Below, in pieces: positions 58,221 through 58,308 of a stretch of 64,000 bases of DNA. Below the pieces are notes generated by a model. That model did not search any database. It was not told where the DNA came from and saw nothing but the letters and a program-made list of their open reading frames with translations. Origin of the DNA: an uncultured Gemmatimonadota bacterium (GTDB lineage: Bacteria > JAAXHH01); assembly GCA_951812955.1 (NCBI GenBank), contig OX638340.1, forward strand, positions 3,456,001-3,520,000, given 5' to 3'. Every line of letters starts with the position of its first letter. Positions within the stretch are counted from its first letter, which is position 1. Position numbers and translations under genes: made by a program.

Positions 58221-58308
58221 GGAGATGCTGATTTTGAGCGCCGGAGATGCTGATTTTGAGCGCGGGAGATTTGGCCTATGAACGCCGGAGATATGGTCTA
58301 TGAGCGCC
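58221..58308. repeat. four tandem 22-bp direct repeats overlapping the RBS/start codon of the downstream gene
   Basis: ggagatgctgattttgagcgcc / ggagatgctgattttgagcgcg / ggagatttggcctatgaacgcc / ggagatatggtctATGagcgcc. The last unit contains the ATG at 58300. Confidence 0.8.

Follow-up and report, generated by a model that had tools for sequence, protein, structure and literature searches.

A tandem array of putative translation-initiation cassettes at the junction of a DUF4956 gene and a YjiK-like gene

Results

Genes of the operon

The locus lies in a 64-kb stretch of DNA, the whole of which was analysed and is referred to here as the window. It consists of an operon with the gene order SBP_bac_3, DUF4956, YjiK-like and metallophosphoesterase, all on one strand, and canonical GAGG/GGAG motifs precede every operon start that was checked. 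At the junction of the DUF4956 and YjiK-like genes, four 22-bp units occur head-to-tail (Table 1). The first base of this array stands directly 3′ of the TGA stop codon of the DUF4956 gene (58218–58220), and the array ends 9 nt inside the YjiK-like gene.

The YjiK-like product is a beta-propeller protein of the phytase-like type that carries a membrane anchor at its N-terminus. Its ORF exceeds the curated cut-off of the Pfam family SdiA-regulated (PF06977) and falls just under that of Phytase-like (PF13449; 27.4 bits, cut-off 27.6). An exact-protein look-up of both window genes flanking the array (DUF4956 and YjiK-like) gave no match, and the YjiK-like protein is identical to cluster member P0122. 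Homologues of this protein were found in uncultured bacteria, in bins labelled Gemmatimonadetes or Latescibacterota, and the gene order of the operon is kept among their loci. The true start of the YjiK-like gene is the ATG at 58300, and 23 orthologues share the conserved N-terminal sequence M-S-A-x-G-N-x-L-L.

Other features of the operon were recorded alongside. The linker of the YjiK-like protein is encoded by in-frame 12-bp (QDVG/QDVR) and 36-bp repeats, which vary among close orthologues: P0121 has one additional unit of each, P0001 has one additional 36-bp unit, and P0002 has more 12-bp units and fewer 36-bp units. At ~2485–2515 of locus L005, a 9-bp in-frame duplication (CGGGCAATA, two copies) in the first YjiK-like codons leads to MSASGNTGN.... 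The SBP_bac_3 and YjiK-like proteins have a common N-terminal anchor motif, M..(P/T)GNRLL..FL..S..FF.VA (18/41 positions identical, E = 5e-09 for the pair), which may be a targeting or anchoring signal. The 5′ part of the metallophosphoesterase ORF contains an 18-bp repeat in 3.6 copies, and the TTG start listed for this ORF at 59446 is probably too far upstream, since the starts of its orthologues are called 45–210 nt past the YjiK stop. Upstream of the SBP gene lies an AT-rich region. A 16-bp direct repeat found there in two copies stands directly 3′ of a TTGACG hexamer, and repeat and hexamer together are a candidate promoter/operator of the operon.

Table 1. Features at the DUF4956/YjiK-like junction and elsewhere in the window. 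Positions are those of the window; SD, Shine-Dalgarno sequence. The uORFs were predicted from the sequence only.
Feature	Position	Strand	Description
DUF4956 family gene, 307 aa	57297..58220	+	ORF; Pfam PF16316, E = 3.2e-14
22-bp array	58221-58308		Four units, head-to-tail
Unit 1	58221-58242	+	GGAGATGCTGATTTTGAGCGCC; subtype A; SD-like GGAGAT intact; start-position codon TTG 58234
Unit 2	58243-58264	+	GGAGATGCTGATTTTGAGCGCG; subtype A; 21/22 identical to unit 1; TTG 58256
Unit 3	58265-58286	+	GGAGATTTGGCCTATGAACGCC; subtype B'; decoy SD and ATG 58278, 22 nt 5′ of true start
Unit 4	58287-58308	+	GGAGATATGGTCTATGAGCGCC; subtype B; SD 58287-58292, ATG 58300-58302, then Ser and Ala codons
uORF from unit-1 TTG, 15 codons	58234..58281	+	TGA 58279-58281 overlaps unit-3 ATG as ATGA
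uORF from unit-2 TTG, 15 codons	58256..58303	+	TGA 58301-58303 overlaps main ATG (ATGA)
uORF from unit-3 ATG, 12 codons, out of frame	58278..58316	+	Stop TAA 58314-58316
YjiK/SdiA-regulated-like gene, 381 aa	58300..59445	+	ORF; Pfam; orthologues
12-bp and 36-bp repeats, YjiK-like linker	58417-58456 and 58506-58594		In frame; 36-bp unit AEAGSVIPSAIDS
18-bp repeat, metallophosphoesterase ORF	59561-59625		GGCTCGTGCCGGGATCGT; VPGSWL/VPGSWF
Anchor motif, SBP_bac_3 and YjiK-like	56102-56225 and 58300-58425
AT-rich region upstream of SBP gene	55780-55990
16-bp direct repeat, two copies	55958-55988		TGAA(T/C)GTTCTTTAAC
Other tandem repeats, examples	6229-6289; 23193-23503; 25472-25518; 33256-33476; 36224-43255; 50665-51674

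The repeat array

The first-pass annotation of this DNA had described four tandem 22-bp repeats over the ribosome-binding site and start codon of the YjiK-like gene, and this description proved exact. Lag-22 matches in the array (54 of 66) are the highest in the whole window, the maximum at this lag in 200 Markov-1 simulations of 64 kb being 35. TRF reported a period of 22 with scores of 93 and 78 and 76% matches overall. The last two units had also been said to contain an ATG. In both it occupies an identical place within the unit (58278 and 58300), and that at 58300 is the YjiK-like start. Unit 4 is the working cassette and comprises the SD, the ATG start and the next two codons. The 22-bp unit has no copy elsewhere in the 64-kb window, and in the fetched loci it is confined to the DUF4956/YjiK-like junction. 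An assembly artefact can be ruled out as the origin of the array, because it recurs in independent assemblies.

Tandem repeats are numerous in the window as a whole, with 86 TRF rows in 64 kb (examples in Table 1). They include 72-bp periodic arrays at 36–43 kb with the look, by eye, of leucine-rich repeats, GGTCCGGCG arrays with a predicted collagen-like Gly-Pro-Ala translation, a 351-bp repeat in 2.9 copies and several 13–18-bp arrays.

Reading frames within the array

In almost all units, positions 15–17 are a TGA. As the period of 22 equals 1 mod 3, one TGA per unit places stops in all three frames, and both DUF4956 read-through and N-terminal extensions of the YjiK-like protein are therefore excluded. 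The stop of the unit-1 uORF, at 58279–58281, falls in the main frame upstream of ATG 58300 and blocks such an extension. The expectation of the first-pass annotation that alternative protein starts would be created is thus ruled out by in-frame TGA codons; upstream starts in the arrays of 22-nt units open only uORFs of 12–15 codons.

The unit-2 uORF contains the main SD (58287), and the first G of its own GGAG is located 13 nt upstream of its TTG at 58256. This uORF has the predicted layout of a coupled uORF, with an SD and start of its own, the main SD enclosed, and a stop that overlaps the main start. The same layout is present in the loci L001, L061 and L002, and the start codon is TCG in L003 and L006. 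The unit-3 uORF spans the main SD and ATG, and the first base of its TAA lies 14 nt 3′ of the A of the main ATG.

The single-copy junction in more distant genomes

More distant orthologous operons have one cassette after the DUF4956 stop, of the form TGA/GGAGAN-N7-ATGAGNNCC. These single-cassette outgroups, whose YjiK-like proteins are 55–70% identical, are L008, L009, L012, L014, L016, L022 and L063–65. The junction reads ccTGA/GGAGACGTGGTAG/ATGAGGACC in L008, TTGA/GGAGATATCGAAT/ATGAGCACC in L009, TTGA/GGAGAGGTGGTCT/ATGAGGGCC in L012 and L063–65, and TTAG/GGAGATCTGGTCT/ATGAGGGCC in L016. The GGAGAT of the array is orthologous to the single SD after the DUF4956 stop in the more distant genomes, in agreement with its earlier designation as a Shine-Dalgarno sequence. 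Only 2 of 22 nt separate unit 4 from the single cassettes found in L016 and L059. The 22-bp unit is therefore the ancestral intercistronic junction, made up of an SD, a 7-nt spacer, a start codon and two codons.

Tandem duplications have occurred independently at the same junction in two other lineages, in other registers. L056–58 have three copies of 32 nt (L056 2400–2510), the unit being the last ~25 nt of DUF4956 and its stop, and L059/60 have two copies of 15 nt (L059 2470–2510), with the unit TGAGGAGAT+6. The DUF4956/YjiK junction seems prone to duplication, and its recurrent duplication could reflect selection for an extra SD-bearing spacer and not mutation alone.

Copy number and unit evolution in close relatives

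Eight loci, including that of the window, carry 22-bp arrays, and their operon DNA (flanks) is 85–99% identical to the window. Copy number is not fixed among them, with 3, 3, 4, 4, 4, 4, 4 and 8 units, and is 1 in the outgroups. In a scan of a genome collection, the matches listed were mostly distant relatives, L006 being the one array-bearing close relative among them. A metagenome scan with a conserved 19-mer 3′ of the array matched only two contigs from one sample, a thin basis at the level of populations.

Two subtypes of the unit can be distinguished. Subtype B, GGAGATATGGTCTATGAGCGCC, is always proximal, and subtype A, GGAGATGCGGATTTTGAGCGCC, always adjoins the DUF4956 stop and is present in 8/8 loci, from which it follows that the first duplication is older than the clade. 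The array reads A A B' B in the window, and L062 has the same array. L001 has three units (A B B), as does L061 (A A B), and L003 has four (A A B B). L006 and L054 likewise have A A B B, with unit 1 of just 21 nt. The eight units of L002 are a mix of A and B, and three of them are shortened to 16 or 20 nt. The consensus sequences of subtypes A and B differ at five positions, all within unit positions 7–14 (post-hoc chance ~0.002), whereas the SD (positions 1–6) and TGAGCGCC (15–22) are identical in both. This clustering suggests selection against decoy ATGs, and perhaps a retention of unit ends or a constraint on the upstream units, as opposed to neutral decay.

The proximal unit is intact in every array, as GGAGATATGGT[C/T]TATGAGC or, in L061, as GGAGGC.... 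Distal SDs have decayed in several lineages (GGAAAT, AGAGAT, GGATTT, GAAGAA), and distal units of L003 and L006 have TCG at the start position. The penultimate unit keeps its SD and start codon in 6/6 genomes analysed.

Units are more alike within an array than orthologous drift predicts in the window, L061 and L003, in which the sibling units 1 and 2 have the derived bases GCTG, GGAATTT and TTTC, respectively, in common. L003 and L006 are 99.5% identical upstream, yet their arrays differ at three sites. Two of these three differences make a unit match its sibling, which would fit exchange between units. The bin containing the array is the most diverged 100 nt in comparisons with L061 and L001 (67–69% identity), most other bins being 90–100% identical. 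The same-species assemblies L003, L006 and L054 have four units each (3/3), although these are consensus assemblies and as such blind to minority alleles. Between the window and L062, which belong to the same or nearly the same lineage, the arrays are identical at 88/88 positions, whereas the coding 12-bp and 36-bp repeats of the YjiK-like gene each show a difference of one copy. Judging from these comparisons, the 22-bp array appears to change on the time-scale of species divergence, more slowly than the coding repeats beside it.

Nucleotide identity along the operon (window 56102–60756, compared with L062, L056 and L003) is a mosaic. L062 is 87% identical to the window in the SBP gene and 99% in DUF4956. 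The upstream genes of L056 are 84–89% identical and its metallophosphoesterase 95%, and the pattern is reversed in L003. Such mosaic identity indicates recombination among lineages, with breakpoints near the junction or the linker.

RNA structure and promoter predictions

In in-silico arrays of 1–8 units, the opening energy of the main initiation region was 19.0–22.8 kcal/mol, a spread of ~3.8. Start accessibility showed no trend with copy number over this range in what is a crude ensemble calculation, the absolute value of ~20 kcal/mol being equally crude. A structured leader was rejected, as the minimum free energy (−34.2 kcal/mol, against −40.0 ± 3.9 for shuffled sequences; z = +1.48) corresponds to a weaker fold. 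No Rfam 15 family matched at E ≤ 1 in 57600–58900 on either strand. A sigma-70 scan found no promoter inside the array, and TTGAGC and TATGAG of successive units, considered by eye as a promoter, are separated by a spacer of just 15 nt.

Discussion

From our comparative analyses, we conclude, with a probability of roughly 60%, that the array is an intercistronic VNTR derived from a duplicated translation-initiation cassette, in which the last unit alone works and in-register slippage cannot switch the gene. As SD, spacer and ATG are contained within a single unit, any in-register change restores an identical proximal cassette. The protein is not frame-shifted either, since the array is located 5′ of the coding frame. 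In-register slippage can consequently neither turn the gene off nor alter the protein. The first-pass annotation had expected copy-number change to alter the SD–ATG context, an expectation that finds no support in this arrangement or in the conservation of the proximal cassette in every array. The locus is best described as an evolutionarily unstable intergenic VNTR or minisatellite, which is a known kind of repeat, with a whole SD–start cassette as its unit. All features of this kind of locus that we tested for were found: a unit of 10–100 bp repeated beyond chance, copy-number variation among orthologous loci, and likeness of units within arrays. A genome that is repeat-prone in general also fits this description.

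The comparison of loci shows that the array arose by duplication of the junction cassette and that its units have turned over. In the ancestral arrangement, a single cassette, TGA/GGAGAN-7 nt-ATG-AGN-NCC, came directly after the DUF4956 stop, and it was tandemly duplicated in the ancestor of one small clade. The upstream copy then diverged to subtype A, three of the five changes removing both ATG triplets. Arrays with between 3 and 8 units afterwards arose through lineage-specific gains, losses and inter-unit exchanges. The presumed source of copy-number change is replication slippage or unequal exchange.

Any influence on translation would be modest at most. The stop-to-start distance has increased from 13 nt in the ancestral arrangement to 79 nt in the window. 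This longer distance should weaken direct termination–reinitiation coupling with DUF4956, as such coupling is reported to drop steeply when the distance between stop and start grows (PMC12548453). Additional units would also add decoy SD/start sites that open short uORFs. The nearest decoy, which lies 22 nt 5′ of the true site, should compete with it for ribosomes, with a mild attenuating effect on translation; the unit-3 ribosome-binding site (RBS) is within one ribosome footprint of the main RBS. It has been reported that closely spaced upstream RBSs lower main-ORF translation through occlusion and that uORFs are coupled to main ORFs by ATGA overlaps (PMC13285730). Copy number would thus be at most a slow quantitative tuner with a modest effect on YjiK-like translation, and differences in it may be nearly neutral.

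The geometry of the uORFs raises the question of whether the array is a translational relay or rheostat under selection, which we consider unlikely. Ribosomes leaving DUF4956 would re-initiate at unit 1 and be handed on at every second unit; because 2 × 22 = 44 equals 2 mod 3 and the starts are ATGA/TTGA, handover would take place by stop–start overlap. In such a relay, an odd number of units, as in L001 and L061, would bring ribosomes to the true ATG, and an even number, as in the window, would lead them into the out-of-frame uORF lying over the start. The geometry is indeed exact, with the unit-2 uORF overlapping the main ATG and the unit-1 uORF ending on the unit-3 ATG. The retained SD and start codon of the penultimate unit and the retained SD and TGAGCGCC of subtype A also speak for a relay, and both ATGA coupling and leaders of bicistronic design are known to function (PMC13285730). 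However, duplication of a 22-nt cassette whose ATGA start is ancestral produces this geometry automatically, so that it is no independent sign of selection. Moreover, L003 and L006 lack a start codon in units 1–2 or in unit 2, distal SDs decay in several lineages, and TTG starts are weak. A more far-reaching proposal, that the array is a selected parity-dependent relay in which odd arrays are coupled and have high output, even arrays, occluded by the out-of-frame uORF, have low output, and a single slippage event toggles coupling and leaves the protein untouched, and that the junction duplications in three lineages reflect selection for tunability, is very improbable.

The slipped-strand switch put forward in the first-pass annotation stands only in part. 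Copy number varies among relatives (3, 4 and 8 units) and units have been gained and lost, but the architecture offers no on/off state and same-species assemblies are uniform. Phase variation in the strict sense, in which units would often be gained or lost inside one population and so set YjiK-like expression on, off or at distinct levels, is quite improbable. Such a switch would be suited by the faster evolution of the array relative to its flanks, by the similarity of units 1 and 2, which could mispair, and by the gene product, an extracytoplasmic protein that is anchored and whose in-frame repeats vary. Against this stand the units themselves, which are long, number just 3–4 in most genomes and are 76% alike, and the cassette and frame, which in-register change preserves, making N-terminal variants impossible. 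The two close relatives with identical arrays and differing coding repeats argue in the same direction, as does the predicted start accessibility with its lack of a copy-number trend.

An array of regulator sites, bound either by a CsrA-type RNA-binding protein at the repeated GGA or by a DNA-binding protein at 22-bp direct repeats (two helical turns), is most improbable: although four GGA motifs are spaced 22 nt apart, the last being the SD, and the unit ends (GAGCGCC/GGAGAT) are the best-conserved part, the unit occurs only at this junction in the window and the fetched loci, the GGA context is CCGGAGA and not the A(N)GGA in hairpin loops of CsrA/RsmA sites, the region is less structured than its shuffles, the sigma-70 scan leaves an operator without a promoter to act on, the outgroups manage with one copy, and the distal GGAG is degraded in several genomes.

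The interpretation as a VNTR of duplicated initiation cassettes has several implications. The locus would be a natural case of tandem duplication of an RBS and start codon, tolerated as the last copy is intact and the upstream copies are disarmed. Look-alike starts 22 nt apart call for caution in gene calling and annotation, and the array is a variable marker by which closely related uncultured lineages could be distinguished. Should the upstream copies modulate coupling or occlude the true site, synthetic bicistronic leaders would have a natural equivalent in this array, which would also offer a simple means of studying how decoy ribosome-binding sites behave.

Comparison with known repeat systems

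The closest likeness is to the bacterial VNTR/minisatellite loci used in MLVA typing, which also have units of tens of bases in variable copy number, imperfect and partly homogenised, with slippage or unequal exchange as the inferred source of change. The present array differs from these in that its unit is a complete initiation cassette at an operon junction, so that each extra copy is a potential decoy start.

Simple-sequence contingency loci include Haemophilus influenzae lic1, with CAAT repeats and several ATGs, and Moraxella catarrhalis uspA2, with AGAT repeats. The G tract of uspA1 has been described as well (PMC4679880), and repeats in 5′-UTRs are documented for H. influenzae (PMC12721329). 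Repeats in these loci likewise lie at or just 5′ of the translation start, with slipped-strand mispairing as their source of variation. Their tracts, however, are short, perfect and numerous in units (homopolymers up to ~9 nt), and their changes shift the frame or the function of a promoter or leader. In place of many identical short units, the array in the window has four diverged units of 22 nt with 76% matches, and a change of unit number shifts neither the frame, nor a promoter, nor the SD–ATG spacing.

In Anaplasma marginale, a microsatellite in the 5′-UTR of msp1a lies between the SD and the ATG, and its genotype varies among strains and has been linked to expression level (PMC3679145). 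Both repeats lie in a translation-initiation region. In msp1a the SD–ATG distance changes, whereas here SD and ATG are both inside the unit and their distance is constant.

In Beggiatoaceae and cyanobacteria, direct repeats of the 7-nt unit TAACTGA lie 5′ of start codons, at ~170 loci genome-wide (PMC4679880). They resemble the present array as intergenic direct repeats over the ribosome-binding region with unit-step indels between strains. Unlike it, they are without SD character and occupy many loci, whereas the array described here is a single locus, and its 22-nt unit includes the SD.

Finally, the layout of the unit-2 uORF and the position of the unit-3 RBS, 22 nt away, resemble ATGA-coupled or occluding upstream RBSs (PMC13285730) and bicistronic-design leaders. 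In contrast to such leaders, the features found here would be by-products of tandem duplication that are partly conserved among relatives, as far as can be read from the DNA itself.
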